A stretch of DNA of 64,000 bases from the NCBI GenBank assembly GCA_964421875.1, contig CAYQZD010000005.1, forward strand, positions 253 to 64,252. Direction: 5' to 3'. Under the pieces are notes generated by a model, which made no database searches, had not been told where the DNA came from, and was given only the letters and a program-made list of their open reading frames with translations. The first letter of the stretch is position 1. Each line of letters starts with the position of its first letter. This DNA is from an uncultured bacterium (GTDB lineage Bacteria; Electryoneota; Tariuqbacteria; Tariuqbacterales; Tariuqbacteraceae). Position numbers and translations under genes: made by a program. Positions 812 to 62,460 of this stretch are shown here, piece by piece.

Positions 812-1234
812 AATCCCGTGCTTGAAATACATCTTGGCGCGCTCGAACTCCCCGTTCGTAAGGTAAACCATACCCAGACCGTTCCAGCCTTGACCGCATT
901 TCGAATCTATATCAAGAGCCGCGCGGAAGCAGTCCTCAGCACGGTAAAGCTCACCTTTCGCAAGGTGAGTCTCCCCCAAACCCAACCAGGCCTCAATGTT
1001 CTTGGGCGAAGCGGTAAGCGCCTCCTTGAAGGCGAATTCTGCCTCCGGATAACGTCCCTGGAGCCAATAAACCAATCCCAGAGCGGCATCCGCTTCGCCC
1101 TGATGATTCTCTATTTCCCGCGCCAGCATCAGGTTTTGTTCCGCCCCCTCCAAATCACCCGATTCAAAGCAAGCCATCCCCTGTGTGAGTGGCGATTTCA
1201 ATGCGCTGTCAACGTTATTTGAGCCGTCAGTCAT
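812..1234 (-). CDS. TPR-repeat protein, N-terminal part; same frame as the 1..808 CDS but separated by TGA at 811-809, which appears to result from two compensating 1-nt indels (about 838 and 780)
   Basis: ATG at 1234-1232. Translation reads MTDGSNNVDSALKSPLTQGMACFESGDLEGAEQNLMLAREIENHQGEADAALGLVYWLQGRYPEAEFAFKEALTASPKNIEAWLGLGETHLAKGELYRAEDCFRAALDIDSKCGQGWNGLGMVYLTNGEFE…, with perfect 34-aa TPR periodicity. It is absent from the supplied track. The plus-strand ORF 557..1222 is its antisense shadow. Confidence 0.5.
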
Positions 1235-1734
1235 AGTGCCGATTGGTTCTTTTAATACTATTACATTGATATGGTCTTCCCGGAGTGAACCATCTCACCC
1301 TTCGCACAAATTGTAAAAGCAAAGTTTGTGACAGTTTACGGCGTGATTGTTATTTTATTGATAAATATTGACTAACGGTTGAAACCGGTGGGAGTAATGG
1401 GTAAGTTTATCCTTCAAGTTAGAGGAAAGGGCAATTATTGCCCCGGCGGATTATCCTTGAGGAAAGAATGAAAGTCATTAGTGGTTTTAAAGAATTGATA
1501 ATGAGAAATTCTAAAATTTGTAACACTTTACCTCTCCTGAATTATTCATAACTTACTAAGAATAGACCGGATTAAAAAGATATACAGGATTTTTTAATCA
1601 ACATCAATTTCCGTAAGACTTTAGCTTTATGGTTCATCTCCAAAGTAGTTGCACTGTGATTTAACTTAGAGCAAATTGGACATCTTTCATCCTATTGGTT
1701 TAATAATAGTTGATTGACCAATAATAAACCATAG

Positions 1735-2769
1735 GAGGCGAAAGATGTCCGGGATTTAAATTTCGCCAATATCAAGGTTTGGCTGAGATTCAACTTCCGC
1801 AAACTGCGGTGTCCCGGTTGTGGGGTCAGGCTCGAAGATCTGGAATTTATCGATCCCTACTTCCATGTTACCACCAGGCTGGCGCAATACATCGTTCATA
1901 TCTGCTCCTTTATGACGGTTAAGGATGTAGCCGACCATCTGGGGCTGGACTGGAAAACCGTGAAAGCCATCGACAAGGCTTATCTGAAGGAAGCTTTCTC
2001 TAAGACCGATTACGAAAATCTTCGCATCATTGCCATCGATGAGATTGCTATCCGTAAGAAACACATATACCTGACAGTGGTCATCGATTACGAAACCGGC
2101 CGTATCGTTTGGATGGGAAAGGGGCGTTCCAAAGCGGTATTGGACCGGTTCTTCCGCCACATGCCCCAGTTGGCAAGGCTCCGATTTTTCGCCGTGGCGA
2201 TGGACATGTGGAAACCTTACATCGATTCGGTGACACAATGGTGCCCAAGAACCGCTATCGTGTTCGATGGTTTCCATGTAATTGCAGCCTTCAACCGGGT
2301 CATCGACCAGGTCAGAAACCAGGAATACCGCAAAGTAAAAGGCAAAGACAAACTGATTTTCAAAGGCTTGAAATACCTCCTGACTATGAATAAAGACCGA
2401 TTATCCATCGCCGGCGGAATGAAATTAGCCGTAGCGCTGGACCTGAACCAAAACCTGTCAAAACTGTATGTGTTGAAGGACTATCTTAAGTTTATCTGGA
2501 AATGCCGCCACCAAAACAACGCTAACTGGCTGCTGGATTACTGGTGCGAATTGGCTGAAGAAACTCAACTCGAACCCGTAATCAAATTCGCGGAAAAACT
2601 GAAAAGACACCGTGAAGGAATCATCAATCATTGCCGCTATCCCATCAGCACCGGCAAATTGGAAGGTATCAATAACTCCTTGAAAGTCCTGAAACGCAAA
2701 CACTACGGTTTTCACGACACCGAATACTACATCCTGAAAGCAAAATCCATCTTCAACGGTTGCAACTAA
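1735..2769 (+). mobile_element. ISL3-family transposase gene, 5'-truncated (IS remnant or pseudogene)
   Basis: The frame is open from 1735, upstream of the track ORF 1912..2769. It encodes …FRKLRCPGCGVRLEDLEFIDPYFHVTTRLAQYIVHICSFMTVKDVADHLGLDWKTVKAIDKAYLKEA… (second CxxC of the ISL3 N-terminal zinc finger, then the DDE core). There is no start codon and no first CxxC, because of the stop at 1732-1734. An AT-rich region lies upstream. Confidence 0.75.
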
Positions 2770-2849
2770 AATGGAGATGAACCTGAAATTAAAACCATGA
2801 AACTGCTGCAGGTGAAGTAGGTCTCGAGTCTGAAATCTCAAGTTTTTAC

Positions 2850-2876
2850 AGCCCCTGATTCCGGGGGCTTTTTTTA
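2850..2876 (+). terminator. Rho-independent terminator downstream of the transposase remnant
   Basis: agcccc-tgattcc-ggggct hairpin followed by tttttttt. Confidence 0.6.
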
Positions 2877-3071
2877 TAGTTCAGACGGATGATTTATGGC
2901 ATTTCTGAATATAAAATCACTGAAATATTTGCAAATCGCAAAAAATTTATTATATTTAATTAATTTGTAGTTCTCCCTCTCGAATGGGGAAAGAGAGAGG
3001 TATGTTTTCTTATATAGCATTTTAACTATACATATCATAAAATCATATTAATTAACGGGAAGGAGTCGACT

Positions 3072-5042
3072 GTGCTGCCCGGAGTAAAGAAGTATCCCCA
3101 CATTTTCCAGCCGGGAAAAATGGGCAAAATGGAGACCAAGAACCGCATCAAGTACGCCTCGACCGAGACCAATTTCAACACCCGCGACGGCTTCGTCACC
3201 GACCGCGAAGTAGCTTATATGCGCGCTCAAGCCAAGGGTGGCGCCGGAATCGTCACCACTCAAGGGGCTTATACCGACCCCTCAGGCGAAGGCAAAGGTT
3301 ATGTCGGTATGATGGGTATCTGGGACGATAAGTATATCCCTGGTTTGAAACGTATCGCGGACGCAATCCACGAATATGACGCCAAAGCCATCCTGCAGCT
3401 TATGCACTGCGGCCGGGTGGGAGGCATCGAACTGGAATACACCATCGGTCCTTCGGAAGTTCCCCAAGCCATACCCCGTTTCCGCCCGCCGCGGGAAATG
3501 ACTCTTGAGGACATCGAACGTAATATCCGGGAGCACATCGAGGGCGCCAGGCGCTGCGTCGAAGCCGGTTACGATGGAGTGGAGATTTCCGGCATCGTCG
3601 GCTACCTCATATCCAATTTTGTCTCCAAATACACCAACAAGCGCACGGATAAATACGGTGGCTCTTTGGAAAACCGCGCACGCTTTATGACGGAGATTGT
3701 CGAAGGCATCCGTACGGAAGTCGGTCCCGATTATCCCATCGTCATCAGACTTTGCGGCGAAGAGCTATTGAACGACCGCGGCGGCAACGCTCCGGAGGAA
3801 TCGCTGGAAGTCATAAAACTGGCGGAAAAGGCGGGCATCGACTGCCTCTCAGTGACCGCCGGATGGCAGGAGTCGGCGGTGTCCGTAATCACCCGCGACT
3901 GCCCGATGGGGAGCTGGCTCTATATCGCGGAGCGGATGAAGAAACACCTGAAGTGCACGATTGCGATGGCTTACCGGCTCTTCCTGCCGGAATTCCCCGA
4001 AGCGGCGATGAAGAGCGGGCACCTCGACTACTGGGAAATGTGCCGTCCCATGATTGCCGACCCTAATCTGCCGCTAAAGATAATGGAAGACCGCATCGAG
4101 GACATCATCCCCTGTATGGCTTGCAACCTCTGCCTGGCGCGCCTCTTCCGCGATCAACCGATAACCTGTATGGTCAGGCCCTGGGTGGGGCATGAGGAGG
4201 AGGAGGACTGGCAGGTGAAGTCTGCGCCGACCAGGAAGCGGGTGGTGGTCATTGGCGCGGGACCTTCCGGGATGGAATGCGCCTGGGCGGCTGCGGAGAG
4301 GGGGCACGATGTGACCGTTTTTGAGAAGTCCGGCGAGGTCGGCGGCCAGCTCACCGCTGCGGAACGGGGTCCCGCCGGTGACGAAGAATTCCGCCGCCTT
4401 ATCGACTGGCTGAAGCGCCGCTGCGACCGGGCGAGGGTGAAATTCGTAATGAATCACGAAGTTACCGCCAGGGATTTTTCCGATCCGTTGACCAATCCCG
4501 ACACCATCGTGCTGGCGGCAGGTTCAAGGGTGGAAATCCCGGATATCCCCGGCGCTGAAAAGTATCCCCCTATGTTCGCGCACGGTGTGATGTATGGGGA
4601 TGTAGAGATAGGGGAAAACGTGGTCATCGTCGGCGGTATGGGGCTGGGCATCTCTGTAGCGCAGTTGCTATTGGACAAGCCTTTCCGCGCGGGCGGTCAT
4701 AAGATTACGATGGTGGAAAAAGCCAAGAAAATCGGCCGCGACGTCAATCCATCCTACATTTGGCGCTATGTGAAGAAGTTGAAGCAGGGGAATGTGCTGC
4801 GCTTGACCAAAAGCGCGTTGAAGGAGATAAAGGAAAAATCCGTGATCGTGACCACACCCGAAGGCGAGCAGGAAATTCCCGCCGACACTGTCGTCATCGC
4901 TGGGCCTTTGAAGTCGAACAACGAGCTGGTGGAGGTTTTAGACCTGGCAGCGGGCGAAGTGTTCACTGTGGGCGACGCTATGGCGCCAAGGAGGGCGCAC
5001 AACGCGATGATGGACGGATACCGGGCGGGGTTGAGGATTTGA
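3072..5042 (+). CDS. 2,4-dienoyl-CoA reductase-like flavoprotein (Old Yellow Enzyme TIM-barrel N-domain plus FAD/NAD(P)-binding oxidoreductase C-domain)
   Basis: 656 aa. The N-terminal region has an OYE-like pattern, the C-terminal region has GAGPSGMECA and VVIVGGMGLG Rossmann motifs, and a CxxC…C cluster resembles the FadH 4Fe-4S site. Confidence 0.7.
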   Translation: MLPGVKKYPHIFQPGKMGKMETKNRIKYASTETNFNTRDGFVTDREVAYMRAQAKGGAGIVTTQGAYTDPSGEGKGYVGMMGIWDDKYIPGLKRIADAIHEYDAKAILQLMHCGRVGGIELEYTIGPSEVPQAIPRFRPPREMTLEDIERNIREHIEGARRCVEAGYDGVEISGIVGYLISNFVSKYTNKRTDKYGGSLENRARFMTEIVEGIRTEVGPDYPIVIRLCGEELLNDRGGNAPEESLEVIKLAEKAGIDCLSVTAGWQESAVSVITRDCPMGSWLYIAERMKKHLKCTIAMAYRLFLPEFPEAAMKSGHLDYWEMCRPMIADPNLPLKIMEDRIEDIIPCMACNLCLARLFRDQPITCMVRPWVGHEEEEDWQVKSAPTRKRVVVIGAGPSGMECAWAAAERGHDVTVFEKSGEVGGQLTAAERGPAGDEEFRRLIDWLKRRCDRARVKFVMNHEVTARDFSDPLTNPDTIVLAAGSRVEIPDIPGAEKYPPMFAHGVMYGDVEIGENVVIVGGMGLGISVAQLLLDKPFRAGGHKITMVEKAKKIGRDVNPSYIWRYVKKLKQGNVLRLTKSALKEIKEKSVIVTTPEGEQEIPADTVVIAGPLKSNNELVEVLDLAAGEVFTVGDAMAPRRAHNAMMDGYRAGLRI

Positions 5043-5297
5043 TACGGCTCGCAGAGTTGGTGAATGGTTATTGAATCACGAAATCCGCGAAATAACACTA
5101 AAGAACACGAAAACAGAAGCGGTTAAGATTAACATAGTCATCCTATCTACTTACTCGTATTGGTGATTTTGGTTTGGATAGAATGCTCATCGCGCATTTA
5201 ATCTCTTATGTTTTTGTGTGTTTCCGGAGTTTCGTGTTTTTCGTGATTCAAAAACGTAAAAAAAACATATCTACTTTTCCATAAACACATTTCAAAT

Positions 5298-6941
<1,644 letters not shown>

Positions 6942-6994
6942 CGATAGATATATAATCGAAGAGAATTTGAAATCAGGGATTAGGAGGAAAGAAT

Positions 6995-7216
6995 ATGTTT
7001 ACTTCCTACAGATTGAAAGCCAGTGAATTGGACAGTAAATTCCTTCAGTCGATTAAAAACTTGTTCAAGGGCAAAGAAATCGAAATTACGGTTTCCGAAG
7101 TCGATGAAACCGAATATTTGTTAAGGTCTGAAGAAAACAAAGAGCGGCTGCTTCAGGCTGTCCGGAATGTGAAAGCGGGAAGGAATCTGAAAGAAGTAAA
7201 TCTGGACGATTTATAA
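6995..7216 (+). CDS. yefM: Phd/YefM-family antitoxin
   Basis: 73 aa. The C-terminus ETEYLLRSEENKERLLQAVRNVKAGRNLKEVNLDDL matches YefM ([27 protein letters not shown]). A GGAGG RBS is present. It overlaps the next gene by 1 nt (TAATG). The context is AT-rich. Confidence 0.8.
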   Translation: MFTSYRLKASELDSKFLQSIKNLFKGKEIEITVSEVDETEYLLRSEENKERLLQAVRNVKAGRNLKEVNLDDL

Positions 7217-7472
7217 TGAGGAGAATTGTCTTTGAACTAAACGCTTTTGAAGATTTCTGTTATTGGACTGAAATCGATAAAAGCAAATCCAATAAAATTA
7301 AAGCATTAATTCGCGACATTATAAGGAGCCCGTTCACCGGTTTGGGTAAACCTGAACCTTTGAATATGAACTTCAAGGGTACTGGTCGCGCAGAATCGAT
7401 AATGAACATCGCCTGGTTTATGAGGTGAAAGAAGAGGAAATTATAATAATTTCATGCAGGTATCATTATTAA
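7216..7472 (+). pseudogene. yoeB: YoeB/Txe-family toxin gene with a -1 frameshift near 7380
   Basis: Frame 1 gives [55 protein letters not shown], which stops at 7428. The +1 frame continues [30 protein letters not shown], ending at 7472. Together these equal full-length YoeB. One T is missing in ggt(t)actgg. Confidence 0.8.
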
Positions 7473-7534
7473 TAATAGTCGGTAGCGCTTTCTTTTATAG
7501 TATGAAACATACAACTTAACTTATAGGTAATCTA

Positions 7535-8119
7535 ATGGAATCCCTACCCTTCAAACCTGAAAAAGCCCAGCGCACCGCGGCTATAATCACCTGGTTCATT
7601 TTATTCTTGATACTGTTAATACCGGGAATAATCCTGGCTATGTTAGTCAGATATCCGGGGAATGCGATAATAGCCTGGTGCACCGCGGGCTGGACCGTGT
7701 TTATGCTGATCGTCCTCTGGTATCTGCCGCTGTACTACAAGAATCTCGGATACGCCGTCGAAGAAGAGATTGTTCGCGGCAACCGGGGAGTTTTCTGGAA
7801 AAAGCGGGTCACCGTCCCCTATACCAAGGTCACCAATGTGGACATCACCCAGGGACCTTTGCAGCGGGCGTTGAATGTGGGGCATATCCATATCCAGACC
7901 GCGGGCGCGTCCGGTTCCCAGGGCGGTCCTCCCGAATTGAAGTTAGAAGGAATCCGCGACCTTGAGGGCGTGAAGGACCTGATTATGGAGCGAGTGAAAA
8001 GACATATGCTTAAAAGCGCCGGGGAAGCGAAGATTGCATCGGAAAAACCATCAGATTCGGAGACACTGTCGAACATACTCGAAGAATTGAAGGCTATCAG
8101 GGGGGTATTGAGTAAGTGA
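7535..8119 (+). CDS. Membrane protein with bacterial PH domain (bPH_2/YdbS-YdbT-like, DUF304)
   Basis: Two N-terminal TM helices followed by GVFWKKRVTVPYTKVTNVDITQGPLQRALNVGHIHIQTAGASG, a typical bPH_2 motif. GC content is host-like. Confidence 0.65.
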   Translation: MESLPFKPEKAQRTAAIITWFILFLILLIPGIILAMLVRYPGNAIIAWCTAGWTVFMLIVLWYLPLYYKNLGYAVEEEIVRGNRGVFWKKRVTVPYTKVTNVDITQGPLQRALNVGHIHIQTAGASGSQGGPPELKLEGIRDLEGVKDLIMERVKRHMLKSAGEAKIASEKPSDSETLSNILEELKAIRGVLSK

Positions 8120-8384
8120 ACGCAGATGACACTGATGAAACGTAAGTGCTGCCGCGTCTCCGCACTCGGCAATTTATCAGCGCAATCAGCGAACATCAGT
8201 ATTATAATCAGCGGTTCAGAGAATTCAGAATCGCTGATGTTAGGTGATAAACTCTGATAACGCTGATGGAATGCGAATTGCAGGAAACCACAGATGACGC
8301 AGAAGACACAGAAATAAGAAGTCATGAAAATCATTTGATAATAGTAGTAGTATTAATATCATTCACAATTAAGGGAGTTATTAA

Positions 8385-9332
8385 ATGGAATCAGAATTTG
8401 GACGAATAGAGAATGTTGAGGTTCGTAAACATTTTCAAAATGAAGCCTCTAAATTTACACCTTGGCTGGCAAAGGAGGAAAACATTCAATTGTTAGGAGA
8501 GGCTATTGGGATTGAACTTGAAGTTGAGAATACAGAAGTTGCTGTCGGTCCATATTCGGCGGATATTTTAGCTCGTGATACAGGGACTGGTAAATATATA
8601 GTAATTGAGAATCAGTTAAAAAAGACAGACCATGATCATTTAGGTAAACTCATTACTTATGGAGCAGTTTTAGATGCGGGTATGGTGATTTGGATTGCCA
8701 CGGAATTTACTGAAGAACATCAAAAAGCTTTGGAATGGTTAAATGATAATAGCTCAGAGGATATTGCTTTCATTGGCGTGCAAGTAGAATTATGGAAAGT
8801 TGACGATTCGCGTCCTGCTGTACGATTTAATGTGTTAAGCAAACCTACTGAGATATTAAGACAAGTTTCGAAAGCGAAGGCTGAAAGTGATTTATCGGAA
8901 ATAAAAAAGCTGGAACTTGAATTCTGGACACTATTCAGAGAAAAATTGTTGGCGACAAAAGAACTGCCTTCCGTGCAATCAGCGAGACCGCAGGCTTGGT
9001 TTGATGTGGCTCTAGGACGTTCCGGGATATTCATTTCAAATAATGTAAATACCTGGGACAATAAAATTACACTTAAGGTCTATATATCACACAAAGTTGC
9101 AGATATATATTTACCAAAACTAATTGAACAGAAAGTTGAAATAGAAGAGGAAATTGGTGAGAGACTGATCTGGAATCCATTTCCAGAAAAATTAGATAAG
9201 ACTATCATATTGTATAAAGATTTTGATTTAAATGATAAAGAAAGATGGACTGAGTGCTTAATATGGATGGTCGATAATACTCTCAAATTCAGAAAAGCTT
9301 TTGCTCCAAGGATAAAAAAAATAGGTAAATAA
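8385..9332 (+). CDS. DUF4268-family PD-(D/E)xK nuclease-like protein
   Basis: 315 aa in an AT-rich region. Motifs: FTPWLAKEENIQLLGEAIGIELEVENTEVAVGPYSADILARD…YIVIENQLKKTDHDHLGKLITYGA…VIWIATEF. Confidence 0.6.
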   Translation: MESEFGRIENVEVRKHFQNEASKFTPWLAKEENIQLLGEAIGIELEVENTEVAVGPYSADILARDTGTGKYIVIENQLKKTDHDHLGKLITYGAVLDAGMVIWIATEFTEEHQKALEWLNDNSSEDIAFIGVQVELWKVDDSRPAVRFNVLSKPTEILRQVSKAKAESDLSEIKKLELEFWTLFREKLLATKELPSVQSARPQAWFDVALGRSGIFISNNVNTWDNKITLKVYISHKVADIYLPKLIEQKVEIEEEIGERLIWNPFPEKLDKTIILYKDFDLNDKERWTECLIWMVDNTLKFRKAFAPRIKKIGK

Positions 9333-9420
9333 CGATTTGATTGTCATTATATTTACTTGCTCAATTATACTTGGATAAAAGACAAATATTATTAGAAAAT
9401 AAACACAATCATTACCTAAT

Positions 9421-9822
9421 ATGCAAAGAAAAATCCGCATACTTATCGCCAAGCCCGGCTTGGACGGGCACGACCGCGGCGCCAAAGTGATGGCCGCCGC
9501 TTTCCGGGACGCCGGTTTCGAAGTCATCTACACCGGCCTGCACCAAACCCCCGAAATGGTGGTCGAAGCCGCCCTGCAGGAGGACGTGGACGCCATCGGT
9601 CTGTCGATTCTCTCCGGGGCGCATATGACCCTGTTCCCCGCGGTGCGCAAACTGATGGACGAAAAGGGACTGGACGACGTCCTGCTCACCGGCGGGGGCA
9701 TCATCCCTGAAGAGGATATGACCGAACTGGAGAACCAGGGCGTCGGCAAACTGTTCGGACCCGGAACCCCCACCGCCCAGTCGATTGGATTCGTGCGCGA
9801 CTGGGTGGAAAAGAGCCGGTAA
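9421..9822 (+). CDS. mcmA2: Methylmalonyl-CoA mutase small subunit (cobalamin-binding domain)
   Basis: 133 aa, [29 protein letters not shown] (DxHxxG B12-binding motif). Confidence 0.85.
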
Positions 9823-9936: not shown

Positions 9937-10683
9937 ATGTCCGGACATTCCAAGTGGGCGACTATTCGGCGGAAGAAGGAAAAAACCGACGCCGCCCGCG
10001 GCCGGATATTCACCCGGCTGATAAAAGAAATCACCGTGGCGGCTCGGATGGGCGGCGGCGACGAAGCCGCCAATCCCCGCCTGCGCACCGCCGTCCTCGA
10101 CGCCAAAGCCGCCAATATGCCTCAGTCCAACATCGACCGCGCGGTCAAGCGCGGCACCGGTGAACTGCCGGGAGTGGTCTATGAAGAGGTGACTTACGAG
10201 GCTTACGCTCCCGGAGGGGTGGCGCTGCTCATCAACACGATGACCGACAACCGGAACCGCACTATCAGCGAAGTCCGCCACATTTTCACCCGCAGAGGGG
10301 GGAATATGGCGGAAGCCGGGTCAGTTTCGTATATGTTCGAGCGTAAAGGGGTGATTTCCATCGATCCCAAGGGCTTGGGTGAGGAGGAAATAATGGAAAT
10401 CGCCCTGGAAACCGGCGCGGAGGACATCAAGGAGGATGAGGCCAATTTCGACATCATCACCACACCCAACGAGTTCGAGGAGGTGAAGAGCGCGGTCGAG
10501 GCCGGTCCCGTGGAAATCCTGTCGGCGGAAATCGCGATGGTTCCTTCTAATTATGTCGAGGTCTCCGGTGAGGATGGTAAAAAGCTCCTAAAACTCCTGG
10601 ACGACCTGGAAAACCACGACGATGTGCAGAACATTTACGGCAATTTCGACCTCGATCCTGCGCTTCTGCAGGAAGAGGAATAG
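9937..10683 (+). CDS. yebC: YebC/PmpR-family transcriptional regulator
   Basis: MSGHSKWATIRRKKEKTDAARGRIFTRLIKEI… is the canonical YebC N-terminus. Confidence 0.9.
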   Translation: MSGHSKWATIRRKKEKTDAARGRIFTRLIKEITVAARMGGGDEAANPRLRTAVLDAKAANMPQSNIDRAVKRGTGELPGVVYEEVTYEAYAPGGVALLINTMTDNRNRTISEVRHIFTRRGGNMAEAGSVSYMFERKGVISIDPKGLGEEEIMEIALETGAEDIKEDEANFDIITTPNEFEEVKSAVEAGPVEILSAEIAMVPSNYVEVSGEDGKKLLKLLDDLENHDDVQNIYGNFDLDPALLQEEE

Positions 10684-10697
10684 CGGGCTGCTATCCG

Positions 10698-11180
10698 ATG
10701 ATTGTGATGGGTATCGACCCCGGCAGCGCGGTCACCGGGATGGGGGTGGTCGAAATCGAGGGTGAGACCAAGCGTCTGCTGGGATTCCGCGCTATCAGGA
10801 CTAACGCCCGCAAGTCTTTGCCAGAGCGGCTGGGGCAGATTTACCGGGCGGTTCAAGCGGATATCGCTGGATACAATCCCGATGTATGCGCGGTGGAGCA
10901 GGTTTTCGGGGGGAAGAACATCCGCTCGGCGCTGATTATCGGACAGGCGCGGGGAGCGGCGATGATGGCTGCCATCAACGCCGGGGTGGAAATCGCGGAA
11001 TACACTCCGGCGGAGGTGAAAATGTCGGTGGTGGGGAACGGCGCCGCTTCCAAGGAGCAGGTGCAGTATATGGTGAAGCATATTTTAAAGCTGGCTGAAG
11101 CGCCCCGCCCTTTCGACTGCGCTGACGCCATAGCGGTGGCGCTATGCCACGCGCATCGAAAGAAATTGAGTGGACATTAG
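10698..11180 (+). CDS. ruvC: Crossover junction endodeoxyribonuclease RuvC
   Basis: MGIDPGSAVTGMGVV…VEQVFGGKN…. Confidence 0.9.
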   Translation: MIVMGIDPGSAVTGMGVVEIEGETKRLLGFRAIRTNARKSLPERLGQIYRAVQADIAGYNPDVCAVEQVFGGKNIRSALIIGQARGAAMMAAINAGVEIAEYTPAEVKMSVVGNGAASKEQVQYMVKHILKLAEAPRPFDCADAIAVALCHAHRKKLSGH

Positions 11181-11210: not shown

Positions 11211-11798
11211 TTGTACCACCACATCACCGGCAAAATCGCCGCCAAACACCCGGCGCACCTCATCGTCGAAAACGGCGGGTTCGGATACAGGATTAACATC
11301 CCCCTATCCACCCACAACAAGGTGGGGAAGGTGGGGGATACGGTGAAACTGCTGCTCACTCCCCACATTCGGGAGGACGACTGGGCTCTGTACGGTTTCG
11401 CCTCCGAGGAGGAGCGGGGGCTGTTCGAGCTTTTGCTGACCGTGTCGGGCGTGGGACCCAAATCAGCCTTGGCGGCGTTATCGGGGATGTCCGCGCAGCA
11501 GTTCCGCACTGCTATCGCGGCAAACGATGTGGACAAACTCACCCTCATCCCCGGCGTAGGGAAAAAGACCGCCCAGCGCATCGCTTTGGAACTCAAGGAC
11601 AAGGTCAAAGCATTGCCTGGGGATTTCGAAGCGGGCTTGCCGCTGGAGGCGGAGTATGGGGAAGCCGTGCTGGCGCTGGAAGCGTTGGGGTTCAGCCGGG
11701 TTCAGGCGGAGAAGGCGGTGGAGCGGGTGATGAAATCCGGCGGCGCCGACCAAGCGGAGGAGATTATCCGCCGGGCGCTGGGGGTGATGGGGGGGTAG
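11211..11798 (+). CDS. ruvA: Holliday junction branch-migration protein RuvA
   Basis: HhH motifs LLTVSGVGPKSALAAL and LIPGVGKKTAQRIALEL. Confidence 0.85.
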   Translation: MYHHITGKIAAKHPAHLIVENGGFGYRINIPLSTHNKVGKVGDTVKLLLTPHIREDDWALYGFASEEERGLFELLLTVSGVGPKSALAALSGMSAQQFRTAIAANDVDKLTLIPGVGKKTAQRIALELKDKVKALPGDFEAGLPLEAEYGEAVLALEALGFSRVQAEKAVERVMKSGGADQAEEIIRRALGVMGG

Positions 11799-11869
11799 TG
11801 ATTTTCGACATTGCGGAGAGTGTGTGGGAGGAGTATATTATAGTTTATCCAAATTGGTCCAAACGACTG

Positions 11870-12898
11870 TTATAGTGAGTTGACGAACAGGATTGATTTG
11901 TTGAGTTCCAATAGCAAAATGAACCTTATTCCTGAAGGAGTGATGTAGAAGTTTCTACCTATTCTTGCCAAGAGTCCTAAATCTATTGAATAGTTCGAAT
12001 ACATCTTGAAGGCGTCGCCAGAAGCTTTTAGAGCCCATTCGTGATGCTTGCCGGATAAATATAGGAAAAATTTTCTGCATTCTTCAAATGGTACTGGATA
12101 GAAGTTCTTAGATAGTGCGAAAACAGATTCTACCGTTGTGTAAATTCCATAAGTGGCTGAACTAAAAAAAGGATTTTGCTTGATAAAATTGCTTAAAACA
12201 ATGCTTTGTTCATCGCTGACATAGTTTGTCGGTTTATTTAAGTCTCTTTTTTTAACGAATTCCTTTCCCAATTCGTTTAATTTAGGGGATTTACTATTAT
12301 CAATTAGTCCAAATTCTTCAGATAATTTTAGGTAACTATTTATAGTGCTGGGAGCTAAAGAAAAAGAAGATGAAATATCTGAAATTGAAATATCATCGTT
12401 TAGTGCATAAAGTATGCGATTAATCAAGTATAGATTCCAAACACCATGATTCTTAGGTTTTAGTTCCACAAGATTGGAAATAGCTTTAACACGAAAATAG
12501 AATTCCTTCAATAATTCGTAAGGTGAGTACTCCACTGGTCTTATGTCATTATCTGAACAGTAAAGGATGTCTTGTTTTGTGAATTTTGGACACGCTAAAT
12601 ATAGATTTATCGGCAATCTTGGCATTTCTTGCCGATCTTGAAGGACAAGCAAATCATCCTTATATCGGAGTAATTGAAGACAGAACTCCTGTCTGCTCTG
12701 TTCAACTTTAAGCTCGAGGAGATGCAGGCGATTTCTTCCCAGAAATAGTAAATCGAGGATACCTCCAGAAGGTAAATGCTTCTGCCGACCAACTAGAGAT
12801 AAATCTCCCTCGAAAGAAAGCACCGTTTTTGTAATGTCAATATGGGTAGAAAGGATGTCTTCTATTTGTGATTCTCTAATTTCAATGATTTTATTCAT
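11870..12898 (-). CDS. Hypothetical PD-(D/E)xK nuclease-like protein (Hjc-like D-x13-E-x-K core) with C-terminal winged-helix-like region; in an AT-rich inserted cassette
   Basis: 342 aa at about 33% GC. N-terminal …IEDILS…GGILDLLFLGRNRLHLLELKV has the spacing and pattern of the archaeal Hjc active site VDLVAGNGKKYLCIEVK. The C-terminal segment LAPSTINSYLKLSEEFGLI resembles a wHTH recognition helix. Overlaps the upstream small gene by 8 nt. Confidence 0.5.
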   Translation of the reverse strand: MNKIIEIRESQIEDILSTHIDITKTVLSFEGDLSLVGRQKHLPSGGILDLLFLGRNRLHLLELKVEQSRQEFCLQLLRYKDDLLVLQDRQEMPRLPINLYLACPKFTKQDILYCSDNDIRPVEYSPYELLKEFYFRVKAISNLVELKPKNHGVWNLYLINRILYALNDDISISDISSSFSLAPSTINSYLKLSEEFGLIDNSKSPKLNELGKEFVKKRDLNKPTNYVSDEQSIVLSNFIKQNPFFSSATYGIYTTVESVFALSKNFYPVPFEECRKFFLYLSGKHHEWALKASGDAFKMYSNYSIDLGLLARIGRNFYITPSGIRFILLLELNKSILFVNSL

Positions 12899-13139
12899 CT
12901 TTCCCTAAAACCTCATAAATATAATAATCGCACTCGGCGCAGATAAAATCGCCTTCGGGGAATGGTTTTCCCATATCGATTCTTGTTTGAACATCATTGC
13001 AGTCTGGAACACGATTAACATAAAAGCCGCTTCCCCATTTTACAGAGCGGCCACATTCATTGCAATTTTCGACAATTTTTTCCATAGCAGGATATCCCTT
13101 TTCGTATTGCATTACTATTAATTTAGACAATTTAGACAA
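12891..13139 (-). CDS. Small Cys4 zinc-ribbon protein (73-82 aa), co-transcribed with the nuclease-like gene
   Basis: CNEC…(17)…C…(19)…CAEC. TTG start at 13139, or ATG at 13112. AT-rich. Confidence 0.45.
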   Translation of the reverse strand: MSKLSKLIVMQYEKGYPAMEKIVENCNECGRSVKWGSGFYVNRVPDCNDVQTRIDMGKPFPEGDFICAECDYYIYEVLGKDE

Positions 13140-13166
13140 TTATTCAAATAAATATACGGCTATTTT

Positions 13167-14192
13167 TTGCCCCCCAACCCCCTAACCAACCCCGCCCTCA
13201 TCGAGGGCGAAGCGGAATTCGACCGGGCTTTACGGCCGGCGCGGCTGGAAGAGTTCGTGGGTCAAGTCCGCTTGAAGGAGAACCTCCGGGTCTTCATCAC
13301 CGCCGCCAAACAGCGCGGTGAAGCGCTGGACCACTGCCTCTTCTTCGGGCCGCCGGGGCTGGGGAAAACCACCTTGGCGCACATCGTCGCCCGCGAGCTG
13401 GGGTCGGAGCTGAAATCCACTTCAGGCCCGGTGCTGGAGCGCGCCGGAGATTTGGCGGGGCAACTCACCAACCTCAAGGAGGGGGACTGCCTCTTCATCG
13501 ATGAAATCCACCGCCTGAACCATGTGGTGGAGGAGTATCTGTATTCGGCGATGGAGGACTTCCGCATCGATATAATGATTGACAAGGGTCCTTCGGCGCG
13601 CACCATACAGCTTAAACTGCCCCCTTTCACCTTAATCGGCGCCACCACCCGGGCGGGATTGTTGACCTCGCCGCTGCGGGCGCGGTTCGGGGTGGTGGGA
13701 AGGCTGGACTATTACCAGCCGGAGGATTTGTTCAGCATCATCAACCGCAGCGCCGGTATTTTAGGGGTGGAGGTGGACGAGGGGGGCGCGCTGGAAATCG
13801 CCTCCCGTTCCCGCGGTACTCCCAGAGTCGGCAACCGCCTATTGCGCCGGGTGCGGGATTTCGCCCAGGTGGAGGGGGACGGGATGATAACGCGGGATAT
13901 CGCCCAGCACGCCCTGGAAAGGTTGGAAATCGACCGTTTCGGCCTGGACGATATGGACAAGCGTATCCTGACTGCCATCATCCGCAACTTCAGCGGCGGG
14001 CCCGTGGGATTGAACTCGCTGGCGGTGGCGGTGGGGGAAGAAGCTGACACCATCGAGGAAATCTACGAACCCTTCTTGATTCAGCAAGGCTTTCTGGAGC
14101 GGACTTCCCGCGGCCGTCAAGCCTGCCGCCGGGCGTATGAGCATATGAACCTGAACCGGGATGAGAACGATGAACAGCCGGGGTTGTTTTGA
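13167..14192 (+). CDS. ruvB: Holliday junction ATP-dependent DNA helicase RuvB
   Basis: Walker [20 protein letters not shown], sensor motifs. Apparent TTG start immediately after the inserted cassette. Confidence 0.9.
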
Positions 14193-14356: not shown

Positions 14357-15385
14357 ATGCGTTTATCCGACTTCAAATACAATATCCCGCAGCGGCTGGT
14401 AGCCCAGCATCCGCCGGACAAACGGGGAGAATCGCGGTTGATGGTGGTGCACAGGGATACGGGAAAAATCGAGCATAGGATGTTCTCCGATATCGTTGAC
14501 TATCTGAATCCCGGAGACGGGGTCATCATCAACGTCACCAGAGTTTTCCCCGCCCGTCTTAAAGGATACAAGGAGAAAACCGACGCCGATATTGAAGTGC
14601 TGCTGCTGCGGGAACTAAACGATTCGTTGTGGGAAGTCCTGGTCAAACCAGCCCGCAAGGTTCGCACCGGAAACACCATCACAGTGGCAGACGACATCGT
14701 CTGTGAAGTTGTGGATAACACCACCTCCGGAGGCCGCGTGGTGCGTTTCCTCTACGATGGCGATTTCCACCAAGTGGTGATGGAACACGGACTTCCACCA
14801 CTGCCCCCTTATATCAAGCGGGAACCCACTACCGATGACCGGGAACGGTATCAGACGGTTTACGCTCAGGTCACAGGTGCGGTAGCGGCTCCCACCGCCG
14901 GGCTGCACTTCACCGAAGAATTGATTACTGCCCTGGATAATAAAGGCGTTAAGATTATTCCCGTCCTGCTGCACATCAGCCTGGGGACTTTCCGCCCGGT
15001 GACTGTAGAGGATTTGACCCGGCATCGGATGGATTCGGAGTATTACGAGGTGACTAAAGAGTCCTCGCACGCTATCAACGAGGTCATCAAAGGCGGCGGA
15101 AAAATCATTGCGATTGGGACTACTGTAGTGCGAACCCTGGAGACTGTAGCCAACTTTATGGGCGGGGTGAAACTGGGGCGGGGCTGGACCGATAAATTCA
15201 TCTATCCCCCCTACAAATTCAAGGTGGTGGACCGTCTGGTCACCAATTTTCATCAACCCTGCTCCACTTTGTTGATGCTGGTCAGCGCCTTCGCCGGGCG
15301 GGATCTGGTGTTGAAAAGCTACAGAAAGGCTATCAAGGAGAATTACCGCTTCTTCTCCTATGGCGACGCACAGGTTTTCTTGTAA
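14357..15385 (+). CDS. queA: S-adenosylmethionine:tRNA ribosyltransferase-isomerase
   Basis: MRLSDFKYNIPQRLVAQHPPDKRGESRLMVV…. Confidence 0.9.
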   Translation: MRLSDFKYNIPQRLVAQHPPDKRGESRLMVVHRDTGKIEHRMFSDIVDYLNPGDGVIINVTRVFPARLKGYKEKTDADIEVLLLRELNDSLWEVLVKPARKVRTGNTITVADDIVCEVVDNTTSGGRVVRFLYDGDFHQVVMEHGLPPLPPYIKREPTTDDRERYQTVYAQVTGAVAAPTAGLHFTEELITALDNKGVKIIPVLLHISLGTFRPVTVEDLTRHRMDSEYYEVTKESSHAINEVIKGGGKIIAIGTTVVRTLETVANFMGGVKLGRGWTDKFIYPPYKFKVVDRLVTNFHQPCSTLLMLVSAFAGRDLVLKSYRKAIKENYRFFSYGDAQVFL

Positions 15386-60964: not shown

Positions 60965-61206
60965 CCACGAATGCACACGAATTTACACGAATACTCACGG
61001 TGCTGCCGGGTCCCCGCACCCGGCAATCGTAGGGTGGGTTTCAACCCACCAATCATTTGTCATTGCGAACGAAGTGAAGCAATCGCTTTGTTTGGAGGGA
61101 TAATTCACTGGCTATGATGGCTATTATGGCTATGCAGGGCGGAATCTCATTCCGCCGAATTCACTAACCCCTAACCCCTAATCCCTAACCCCTTCCGGGA
61201 GGACAT

Positions 61207-62460
61207 ATGCCCCTGCCAACCAACCAACAAATCGAAGCCTGGCGCGCCCGCTGGGACGACCACCCAAGATTGAACGATAAAATCGCTTACATCCTAAAAG
61301 GCGACAGACCCGCCGAAACCGCCGAGGAAGCCGCCAAGAGGATGTGGGAGGTGAATGAGGAATTGAGGAAGGCGAATGTGGAAAGTGGTGAAAATGATTT
61401 TGAAATATATGAGGGAGAGGGTAAAAAGACTTGGATAATAGATAAGTATTCAGTTGTTCCTATCTTGGACATGCGCGGCATTGATTTTCATAAAAAAGAG
61501 TTGTGTGGAATCATTATCCCGTTTGCGCTACTTGAAAAATCTTTCTTGCTTCTTGCGCAATTGAATGGAGCTAACTTGCTTCGTGTTCGATTAGAAGGGG
61601 CAGATTTAAGTGGAGTACATATTGAAGGTGCAAGTTTTCGTTTCTCGCAAGTTGGTTTACATATACTTGATATTAATAATAAAAAAAGAGGAAATAAAAA
61701 ATGCATCTCTACAGAAAGGGAAAAAATAAACACGACTTTTGCCGATAATAATTATTTGCCAAGGATGATAAAATTATTGACTATTAGAGAAATAGTAATA
61801 GTAATTTCACTTTTAATTAAAGGACTCAAACCAGATATAATGTTTGGTACCTATGCTGATGAAATAAATGGAATTAAAAAGAAAAAATTCCATTTATGGT
61901 TTAAAGAAATCTATGATAGAAGTAAACTCTGTCGTTTGTTTTTCCTACGCTGGTTTTACACAGATTTCCGTGGAGTGAAAATCGATGACGCTGACACCAC
62001 CTTAGCCGCCGATTTGCGCCGTTATGTCCACGACCAGCAGTTTTTAGACCGTTTACGACAGAAGCATCCTATTCTTTTCTGGTTATGGAACATCACCACC
62101 TGCTGCGGCTGGTCGCTGTCGCGGGTTTTTATCCTGTCGCTCCTGATAATCGTTCTTTTCGCTTTGATATACGCCAACGCGCCCTTCCCCGCGCCGGATT
62201 TTATGCCGGATTGGCTGTTGATGCAGCCCGGCGCTCAACTCGTCGTCCCCGATATGAAATACGAGGAGATGGAGGGGATTTCCGACACCTTCAAGTGGTT
62301 TTTCTACTCCTTCGACATTTTCACCAATCTCGGCATCCGCAGCGCCCATCCCGCCAACAACTGGGGCGTGATTGTGGTTTTCCTCGAAACCATCGCCGGT
62401 TTCTCGATGTTGGGCTTGTTAATTTCGGTGATGGCGCAAAAGCTGGCGCGGAGGGCGTAG
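61207..62460 (+). CDS. Pentapeptide-repeat protein fused to an ion-channel (Ion_trans_2-like) pore domain
   Basis: Pentapeptide run LAQLNGANLLRVRLEGADLSGVHIEGASFRF. C-terminal TM-pore-TM with …FFYSFDIFTNLGIRSAHP…. The central part, about 61380-61960, is AT-rich. Confidence 0.6.
   Translation: MPLPTNQQIEAWRARWDDHPRLNDKIAYILKGDRPAETAEEAAKRMWEVNEELRKANVESGENDFEIYEGEGKKTWIIDKYSVVPILDMRGIDFHKKELCGIIIPFALLEKSFLLLAQLNGANLLRVRLEGADLSGVHIEGASFRFSQVGLHILDINNKKRGNKKCISTEREKINTTFADNNYLPRMIKLLTIREIVIVISLLIKGLKPDIMFGTYADEINGIKKKKFHLWFKEIYDRSKLCRLFFLRWFYTDFRGVKIDDADTTLAADLRRYVHDQQFLDRLRQKHPILFWLWNITTCCGWSLSRVFILSLLIIVLFALIYANAPFPAPDFMPDWLLMQPGAQLVVPDMKYEEMEGISDTFKWFFYSFDIFTNLGIRSAHPANNWGVIVVFLETIAGFSMLGLLISVMAQKLARRA

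Follow-up and report, generated by a model that had tools for sequence, protein, structure and literature searches.

The subject of this analysis is a small AT-rich gene cassette at positions 11799–13166 of a stretch of 64,000 nucleotides (hereafter the window) from an uncultured bacterium of the Electryoneota (assembly GCA_964421875.1, contig CAYQZD010000005.1, positions 253–64,252 of the forward strand). The cassette lies between the recombination genes ruvA and ruvB and encodes two proteins, a nuclease/winged-helix protein of 342 amino acids (aa), here called BIG, and a small zinc-ribbon partner, here called Zn. This insert is the inner gene pair of a four-gene operon of the restriction-modification (R-M) type, whose DNA methyltransferase gene (M) and type II restriction endonuclease gene (R) have been lost in the lineage of the window. 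As for the activity of the pair, the explanation that is tentatively favoured here, at slightly less than an even chance, is that of an orphaned R-M operon core acting as a partner-gated autonomous defence nuclease. The two genes, taken from the list of open reading frames (ORFs) and, for Zn, also from a comparison of start codons, are as follows:

11870–12898, minus strand: BIG, 342-aa nuclease/winged-helix protein
12891–13085, minus strand: Zn, 64-aa Cys4 zinc-ribbon partner

The usual picture of a type II R-M system is one of two genes, to which a small controller gene is sometimes added. In the relatives of the cassette (related loci bear labels of the form L0xx or L1xx, and the flanking ORFs were clustered without bias in 109 of them), the pair is normally located between M and R, and all the genes are co-directional. 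Two gene orders occur. The order M-Zn-BIG-R is complete in L022 and L059 and partial in L026, L047, L052, L021, L045, L049 and L053; the order R-Zn-BIG-M is nearly complete in L023 and partial in L014, L028, L025, L054, L016, L060 and others. M is recognized by the Pfam family N6_N4_Mtase, the PADLOC model MTase_II (E 1.6e-118) and an SPPY motif, and R by the Pfam family MvaI_BcnI (E up to 7e-51) and the PADLOC model REase_II. This four-gene arrangement was not found in Pfam, NCBIfam, PHROGs and PADLOC or in the literature searched on MvaI/BcnI systems. N-terminal fragments of R stand upstream of the pair in L054 and L109, and it was considered whether the cassette splits an R gene; the idea was dropped, since mapping of the fragments shows two permuted orders of whole genes.

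The components around BIG vary from locus to locus. One subclade without the zinc ribbon has a BsaWI-like endonuclease upstream and the same methylase type downstream, two methylase types are found upstream in different loci, and a clade at 34–46% identity has an unrelated acidic protein of 65–88 aa in the place of Zn, often with a Bro-N gene before the remnant of R. BIG is therefore the constant element, while the partner, R and M are exchangeable. As a side observation, in L035, L037–L039, L083–L086 and L090–L102 the Bro-N gene (278–286 aa, about 90% identical between loci) is located between BIG and an MvaI/BcnI-like gene that is truncated at its N-terminus, and upstream there is a truncated methylase-like gene of 226–244 aa, with a conserved N-terminal domain of unknown fold and the S-adenosylmethionine-binding motif I, but without motif IV.

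Decay of the outer genes is the rule. M and R are both full length in L022 and L059 only; L023 has an intact R and an M lacking about 70 N-terminal residues; in most loci M and/or R are absent or cut to fragments of many lengths, with BIG as a full-length frame. No trace of M or R remains beside the pair in the window, L007, L011, L013, L018, L019, L024 and L064, and no homologue of either was found anywhere in the 64-kb window. BIG itself is occasionally broken, namely in L042 and probably in L019. The cassette of the window is not a complete type II R-M system; M and R both occur in the relatives L022, L059 and L023. The first-pass annotation, made from the letters of the window, had proposed a two-component system for defence or addiction. 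The pair stands, and defence or addiction is judged a reasonable reading; the pair is, however, incomplete, being the inner half of a four-gene operon of M, small protein, BIG and R, and the partner is exchangeable or absent elsewhere. In L023, the R-Zn-BIG-M genes are followed directly by a 298-aa ORF (8048–8944) with a DPPY motif, which by eye has the look of a Dam-type adenine methylase.

The architecture of BIG was derived from an AlphaFold2 model built from 46 homologues, with a mean predicted local distance difference test score (pLDDT) of 87.5. Residues 9–125 form an alpha-beta-beta-beta-alpha-beta-alpha-beta domain, whose core consists of H9-27, E34-41, E47-53, E58-63, H70-88 and E97-103 (H, helix; E, strand), and which is followed by helical and winged-helix modules. 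The winged helices span residues ~158–216 and ~229–341; the latter, the C-terminal third, is the most conserved part of the protein, and the winged-helix half as a whole is basic, with an isoelectric point (pI) of about 9. The core has the alpha-beta-beta-beta-alpha-beta fold with the D...(D/E)xK signature of PD-(D/E)xK nucleases, in the spacing D49-x12-E62-x-K64. Residues E13, D14, D49, E62 and K64 do not vary among 46 close homologues, and in an alignment reaching from bacteria to haloarchaea D49 and E62 are still invariant and K64 is at least 90% conserved. When the model was searched against the PDB with Foldseek, significant matches were obtained only for NucS/EndoMS (E 1e-5 to 1e-4), and no full-length structural analogue was found there. 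The distant full-length members P0168, P0169 and P0181 score above the Pfam gathering cut-off for NucS_C, while BIG of the window reaches no Pfam threshold: Pfam, NCBIfam and PHROGs give sub-threshold winged-helix matches only, and PADLOC gives a partial match of residues 9–79 to the candidate defence family PDC-S11 (E 3.8e-6). On the strength of the model, BIG is predicted to be a NucS-type PD-(D/E)xK nuclease domain joined to two winged-helix domains. A PD-(D/E)xK fold with a winged helix had been proposed for the 342-aa protein from its sequence, and structure prediction and fold search bear this out; the family was also rightly called unassigned, since Pfam, NCBIfam, PHROGs and PADLOC hold no name for it. 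The motif had been read as D-x13-E-x-K, one residue too long, and likened to that of the archaeal Holliday-junction resolvase Hjc. No Hjc signal exists by sequence or fold: Pfam (E<=1), NCBIfam and the PDB sequences gave no Hjc match, and neither Hjc nor DpnI is among the Foldseek structural matches.

NucS/EndoMS, which come closest to BIG in structure, are endonucleases specific for mismatches, and this brings in an analogue of Vsr as a rival explanation, in which BIG would repair deamination at the sites methylated by the M of its operon. Endonucleases of the MvaI/BcnI and BsaWI families cut CCNGG/CCGG-type sites, and Vsr genes are known from systems that have sites of this type; these are the families of the R partners of BIG, which fits the proposal. 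However, SPPY, the motif found in the methylases, is typical of N4-cytosine enzymes, and deamination of N4-methylcytosine yields uracil, which is handled by general repair. Moreover, BIG lacks the N-terminal domain of NucS, and the pair is kept where there is no methylase. Hence we regard a Vsr-like role as very improbable.

The small partner most probably starts at the ATG at 13085, which gives a protein of 64 aa (MEKIVENCNECG...). This ATG and the preceding AAAGGGATATCCTnCT are conserved in L007, a sister species in which the upstream frame is closed by stops, and gene callers likewise choose the ATG at 13085. The first-pass annotation had described a Cys4 zinc ribbon of 73–82 aa, of which the zinc ribbon holds and the length most probably does not. 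Among 19 homologues there is no variation in the cysteines C8, C11, C49 and C52, nor in G12, G18, G20, N24, R25, P41, P43 and G45; the conserved core reads G-x-G...NR...P-x-P-x-G. Zn is acidic (pI 4.4); its AlphaFold2 model has a pLDDT of 76, and a fold search with this model returned no informative structural neighbour. In most loci of the clade above 47% identity Zn lies directly upstream of BIG. In the window the two genes overlap by 8 nt (ATGAATAA), through which Zn is translationally coupled to BIG, and in relatives the overlap of partner and BIG ranges from 4 to 29 nt.

A small upstream gene that overlaps the downstream gene, here by 8 nt, is the classic layout of a type II toxin-antitoxin (TA) system. 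It is possible, though rather unlikely, that BIG acts as a toxin by cutting DNA, with the small acidic protein encoded upstream as its antitoxin or inhibitor, and that the pair, having stabilised the R-M island, has outlived it since loss of the pair kills the cell. Two mutually unrelated small acidic proteins (pI 4.2–4.8) occupy the same position in two clades, the pair outlasts M and R, and the ruvA-ruvB site holds in sister lineages a module with an HEPN-type Rx4H motif; all this agrees with addiction. On the other hand, mutations that inactivate a toxin are neutral for the host, yet BIG has a ratio of nonsynonymous to synonymous substitution rates (dN/dS) of 0.066 and catalytic residues conserved across phyla. 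Compared with typical toxins, BIG is also much larger, and its conservation over the whole length is far greater; a small partner is missing from the archaeal branch and from some bacterial loci, and neither PADLOC nor Pfam gives a TA signature.

The site of the insert is bounded by the following features; the flanking genes have host composition and are named from Pfam families (RuvA_N, HHH_5 and RuvA_C; RuvB_N, AAA_lid_4 and RuvB_C), and the two spacers come from inspection of the sequence:

11211–11798, plus strand: ruvA, left flank
11799–11869, no strand: 71-bp spacer from the ruvA stop to the BIG stop
13086–13166, no strand: 81-bp AT-rich divergent intergenic region from the Zn start to the ruvB start
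13167–14192, plus strand: ruvB, right flank, with a TTG start

The insert of 1.37 kb thus separates ruvA from ruvB, and both of its genes are antisense to ruvAB. In 200-nt windows its GC content is 0.295–0.425 against 0.58–0.67 in the flanks, and positions 12001–13000 are the lowest-GC kilobase of the whole window (0.356). The RuvA and RuvB domains are matched at E-values from 1e-11 to 1e-77. An AT-rich two-gene segment lying exactly between ruvA and ruvB, as had been noticed from the letters, is confirmed by the ORFs, the GC profile and the Pfam flanks, and it is indeed compositionally foreign, with GC and GC at third codon positions (GC3) far under those of the host flanks. The wider neighbourhood consists of the following genes, named from the Pfam families on the identical contig:

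9937–10683, plus strand: yebC
10698–11180, plus strand: ruvC, intact
14357–15385, plus strand: queA

At the edges, the junction motif GATTTTCGACATT (11800–11812) is common to the window and L007, and the rest of the left spacer (about 54–57 bp up to the BIG stop) is absent in L007. The 81-bp intergenic region contains a tandem TTTAGACAAT repeat at 13122–13141, and TTATTTGAATAATTGTnnAAATTGT together with the stretch preceding the Zn ATG is conserved between the window and L007. This region presumably carries the promoter of the cassette and perhaps now also that of ruvB; no consensus sigma-70 site was found in 13086–13166, so that we only infer its promoter function. Terminal inverted repeats, target-site duplications, tRNA genes and Rfam elements were sought at the edges of the insert, and none was found. 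A 10-nt repeat (ATTTTCGACA) was considered as an insertion signature and discarded: its second copy lies inside the Zn coding region and not at the right-hand edge, and its occurrence is at chance level. The TTG start of ruvB had been taken for a possible effect of the insert, but L007 has ATG at the same codon and L121, the next relative, uses GTG; the non-ATG start is therefore ordinary variation within the lineage.

The history of the site can be followed in the closest genomes. RuvB of the window is about 70% identical to RuvB of Calditrichota and KSB1, and that of the sister species L007 is 89% identical (QueA 90%). L007 carries the pair at the same place (3708–4923); about 80% nucleotide identity runs unbroken across cassette and flanks, and both junction sequences are common to the two genomes, which points to a single ancestral insertion. 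The segment is an island that was acquired by horizontal transfer and passed on vertically thereafter. Between the window and L007, the values for the pair and two host genes are as follows:

BIG: dN/dS 0.066, GC3 0.32–0.38
Zn ribbon: dN/dS 0.066, GC3 0.34–0.40
ruvB: dN/dS 0.083, GC3 0.77–0.78
queA: dN/dS 0.055, GC3 0.66

As judged from these substitution rates, the pair is functional and under purifying selection in the absence of M and R, with a strength like that on ruvB. The first-pass annotation had held that finding both genes between ruvA and ruvB throughout the clade, in host-like composition, would tell against a foreign module. Half of this applies: the site is the same in L007, and the composition is not host-like (GC3 0.32–0.40 against 0.66–0.78). 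In three further relatives (RuvB 81–83% identical) the comparison of the ruvA-ruvB junction gives another picture, since a different AT-rich, co-directional two-gene module of GC 0.34–0.37, unrelated to the pair, stands there:

L121, 729–1689: alternative ruvA-ruvB module
L122, 2044–3004: alternative ruvA-ruvB module
L123, 3014–4004: alternative ruvA-ruvB module

This module encodes proteins of 156–159 aa and 170–173 aa, the second with an Rx4H motif and a weak HEPN_Apea match; it matches no assigned family and is probably of the TA or abortive-infection (Abi) type. Because the cargo of these genomes is unrelated, the ruvA-ruvB interval is regarded as a hotspot for small foreign two-gene modules. 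In L120, another close relative, no ruvA is called near ruvB, and RuvB (4001–5458) is annotated with 485 aa and with RuvB_N and AAA listed twice, which is either an internal duplication or a mis-call.

The position of the pair raises the question of a horizontally acquired Holliday-junction-processing factor working with RuvAB, a role that the first-pass annotation had offered as hitch-hiking in the resolvasome operon. PD-(D/E)xK resolvases do exist, and ruvB adjoins the pair in the clade of the window and, independently, in two Nitrospirales metagenome-assembled genomes (MAGs). Against this, these two MAGs are the only such case among the related loci, and yebC is within 5 kb in two further loci; 105 of the 109 loci have no ruv or yebC gene nearby, none of 76 metagenome loci has either, and the conserved neighbours are M and R, so that homologues are by no means always next to ruv genes. 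In addition, the Hjc signal is lacking in sequence and fold, sister lineages have unrelated cargo at this site, the genes of the cassette run antisense to ruvAB, and ruvC is present and intact. The junction-factor reading is largely refuted and keeps next to no probability. A functional ruv association was accordingly set aside, and the adjacency, rare among the 109 loci, is treated as positional. In the two Nitrospirales MAGs (L018, 4738–7014; L024, 4789–7014) the pair directly follows ruvB on its downstream side, and no remnant of M or R is present; two independent ruvB adjacencies exceed chance, but they were noticed post hoc.

The retention of the pair also bears on whether BIG is a regulator, that is, an oversized controller or modification-state sensor which binds operon DNA and times restriction against methylation, and which in the window would be domesticated or left over. 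The constant position of BIG between M and R in both orders, its association with several R and M families and with a Dpd-like island (described below), and the tandem repeat upstream of the pair are all compatible with such a role. A pure regulator, however, does not need the catalytic triad that is conserved from bacteria to archaea (K64 in at least 90%), and it should decay after M and R are lost, whereas strong purifying selection is seen in a lineage that has neither. BIG is unlike the known controller (C) proteins, and no operator motif is conserved across loci: among 37 upstream regions inspected, no operator shared beyond the closest relative was found. A regulatory function is therefore considered improbable.

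The family to which BIG belongs is, by database searches, rare and scattered over at least ten phyla. A word-indexed search of 5.8 billion proteins returned 269 relatives, all unnamed or 'hypothetical', of about 339 aa and 52–60% identical to BIG, from Poribacteria, Zixibacteria, Ignavibacteria, Planctomycetota, Marinimicrobia and others. When 1.84 billion cluster representatives were searched exhaustively with a profile, only 176 matches were obtained at E<=0.001, of which about 30 are full length, all with the architecture of BIG. Among 185,579 species, each represented by one genome, there are 33 loci, all in MAGs of about ten phyla, and the GC content of the BIG gene is below that of its flanks in 33 of 33, including genomes of 55–66% GC. 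No copy was found in 50,697 phage records, and 72,556 plasmids yielded a single distant one, carried by a megaplasmid that cannot be mobilised.

This distribution has to be set against the notion of a selfish, homing-endonuclease-like cassette which invades M-R junctions and occasionally other spacers such as ruvA-ruvB. Such a cassette would explain why the pair always stands between M and R irrespective of the order and family of these genes, why in every host it has a high AT content and sharp boundaries and, in the window, sits precisely in an intergenic spacer, and why its neighbour genes are frequently degraded. Yet terminal repeats, target duplications, tRNA landmarks and an integrase are all missing; no near-identical copies occur in different contexts, the members of different loci being only 50–60% identical; phages hold no copy, and the one plasmid copy is distant and on a megaplasmid that is not mobilisable. 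A single immobile syntenic copy, moreover, would not hold dN/dS at 0.066. On balance a selfish cassette is quite improbable, though a shade less so than the Vsr-like role.

The plasmid copy leads to the archaeal relatives. It is carried by the Halobaculum marinum megaplasmid NZ_CP119991.1 (locus L124, 175269–188306) and is 28% identical to BIG, with an hhalign probability of 99.9% and an E-value of 1.4e-32 over 317 columns. It lies between a TGT-like(DUF6884)/QueD/QueE/FolE/QueC cluster and a UvrD-type helicase with a PD-(D/E)xK nuclease, a layout that resembles the Dpd islands for 7-deazaguanine modification and restriction of DNA (PMC5699537). BIG was also considered as a known Dpd component, but the Dpd review consulted mentions no protein with this architecture. 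In a third distant member, the BIG homologue comes after a superfamily 1 helicase of 1508 aa. In the haloarchaeal locus L126 (2440–6648) the BIG homologue is followed by a Vut_1 gene, Vut_1 being the preQ0/preQ1 transporter family, and by a HATPase_c_3 gene whose ATPase is MORC-like. The small partner is absent in the archaeal branch and in some bacterial loci. These contexts suggest that archaeal Dpd-like DNA-modification defence islands contain the BIG family. Taken as a whole, the family is one of modification-based defence islands.

From here a bolder form of the defence reading can be put, which is doubtful but deserves statement: BIG could be a 'reader-nuclease', a so far unrecognised third activity of modification-based defence islands, which senses modification state. 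The marks sensed would be of the methylcytosine type in the bacterial operons and 7-deazaguanine in the haloarchaeal islands, and once M and R had decayed, BIG would be autonomous enough to persist by itself as an immune nuclease, kept in check by an interchangeable small acidic partner. If this were true, a new four-gene class of R-M systems and a new orphan defence gene family would follow.

The explanation tentatively favoured, that of an orphaned R-M operon core acting as a partner-gated nuclease, is more limited. It is proposed that the basic winged-helix half of BIG reads DNA and its NucS-type site makes the cut, and that BIG acts as an autonomous defence nuclease against a DNA state absent from the host, be it a foreign modification or another non-self feature. 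The co-translated acidic partner, a zinc ribbon here and an unrelated protein in another clade, would gate or restrain BIG, and in the ancestral complete operon BIG would complement the classical M/R pair. Long retention without a cognate methylase argues that BIG is not a conventional restriction enzyme attacking unmodified host DNA. By analogy with type IV and type IIM nuclease-winged-helix fusions, a preference for a non-host DNA state is the most likely one; PD-(D/E)XK-wH fusions (wH, winged helix) act as modification-dependent enzymes (PMC11037411).

Several points weigh against this explanation. Modification-dependent enzymes seldom adjoin methylase genes (PMC11037411), and since the ancestral operon includes a methylase, a regulatory or accessory role would fit more easily. 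BIG has no detectable similarity to DpnI-type enzymes in sequence or structure. Mere co-localisation of two defence activities leaves the exact central position between M and R in both orders unexplained, and because the archaeal branch has no small partner, gating by a partner is not general. Finally, the synonymous differences of BIG between the window and L007 are near saturation (proportion of synonymous differences, pS, 0.66), yet the GC3 of the cassette is still 0.32–0.40, which simple vertical inheritance under the mutation bias of the host does not explain; repeated replacement by foreign alleles could have kept it low, and selection on composition is also possible.

In a wider sense, the BIG family points to a recurrent extra module, made of a nuclease with DNA-reading domains and a small partner, between M and R of at least two restriction-enzyme families. 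Under strong purifying selection, this module outlives the other parts of the R-M system. Should the activity of the module become known, it could explain the fate of R-M islands after decay, add an orphan nuclease family to the defence catalogue and possibly provide a new enzyme that reads DNA modification. For annotation, the ruvA-ruvB interval of this lineage is to be treated as an exchange site for small foreign two-gene modules, whose link with the recombination genes is positional and not functional.

The short palindromes of the window were also counted. Strong depletion is seen for GATC (45 observed against 329 expected), GGCC (121 against 295) and CATG (39 against 162), and CCWGG and CCSGG are not depleted; the flanks of L023 are nearly free of GATC (observed/expected 0.07). 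GATC avoidance was weighed as a clue to specificity and rejected: it also occurs in sister lineages without the cassette, is bimodal in cassette loci, with depletion in about half of the cassette-bearing genomes, and is independent of the intactness of M and R. GATC depletion is a host trait.

Elsewhere in the window, an ISL3-family transposase ORF of 285 aa (1912–2769, plus strand; DDE_Tnp_ISL3, E 1.4e-66) lies in a lower-GC stretch (1200–3000) and is probably truncated, since only the last part of its N-terminal helix-turn-helix (HTH) is left, and another low-GC kilobase is found at 61001–62000 (GC 0.41). A second AT-rich island (6950–9400, GC 0.31–0.40) is located between a methylmalonyl-CoA mutase gene (5298–6941) and the gene of its B12-binding domain (9421–9822). 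It contains a bacterial PH-domain gene (7535–8119, plus strand) and a full-length gene of the PADLOC candidate defence nuclease PDC-S11/DUF4268 (8385–9332, plus strand; E 3.7e-112), so that, 2.5 kb from the ruv cassette, another NucS-like nuclease is wedged between host genes linked in function. Nothing relevant was found in the literature searched for PDC-S11.

As regards known systems, the strongest fold match of the BIG nuclease domain is with NucS/EndoMS, the mismatch endonuclease of archaea and actinobacteria (PDB 2vld, 5gke; Pfam NucS_C). In NucS the nuclease domain is C-terminal, whereas in BIG it is N-terminal and starts at about residue 9; two winged-helix domains stand in BIG instead of the N-terminal DNA-binding/dimerisation domain of NucS, and the genomic context of BIG is R-M-like, not that of repair. 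With that domain absent and the domain order different, BIG is not a NucS orthologue. PDC-S11 (DUF4268) has a NucS-like N-terminal nuclease domain in common with BIG, whose match is weak and covers residues 9–79 only; BIG has no DUF4268, and the two are separate protein families. In the type IIS enzymes FokI and N.BspD6I the domain order is the reverse of that in BIG, and these matches have domain-level scores only, without sequence similarity. The known C proteins are small HTH proteins of about 80 aa, whereas BIG has 342 aa, a nuclease domain and no conserved operator upstream. DpnI has a length of about 254 aa; BIG is about 90 aa longer and has two winged-helix domains. The PD-(D/E)XK-wH fusions DpnI, FcyTI and Psp4BI (type IIM / type IV; PMC11037411) resemble BIG in combining an N-terminal nuclease with a C-terminal winged-helix reader, and like BIG they can exist without a cognate methylase: no methylase gene is near the pair in the window and about seven other loci, while one is present in the ancestral operon. 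They show no detectable homology to BIG in sequence or structure, and BIG differs from them in being ancestrally inside a methylase operon and in having a small partner in most of its clade. BIG is thus not Hjc, not a member of the DpnI family, not PDC-S11 and not a C protein. A nuclease-winged-helix gene with a small partner between M and R has, to our knowledge and within the literature searched, not been reported for MvaI/BcnI and BsaWI systems. It is nevertheless M and R genes of these type II families that flank the pair in the complete relatives, neither of them being present in the window, and the four-gene arrangement is a kind of restriction-modification or defence nuclease system, conceptually close to known defence nucleases.

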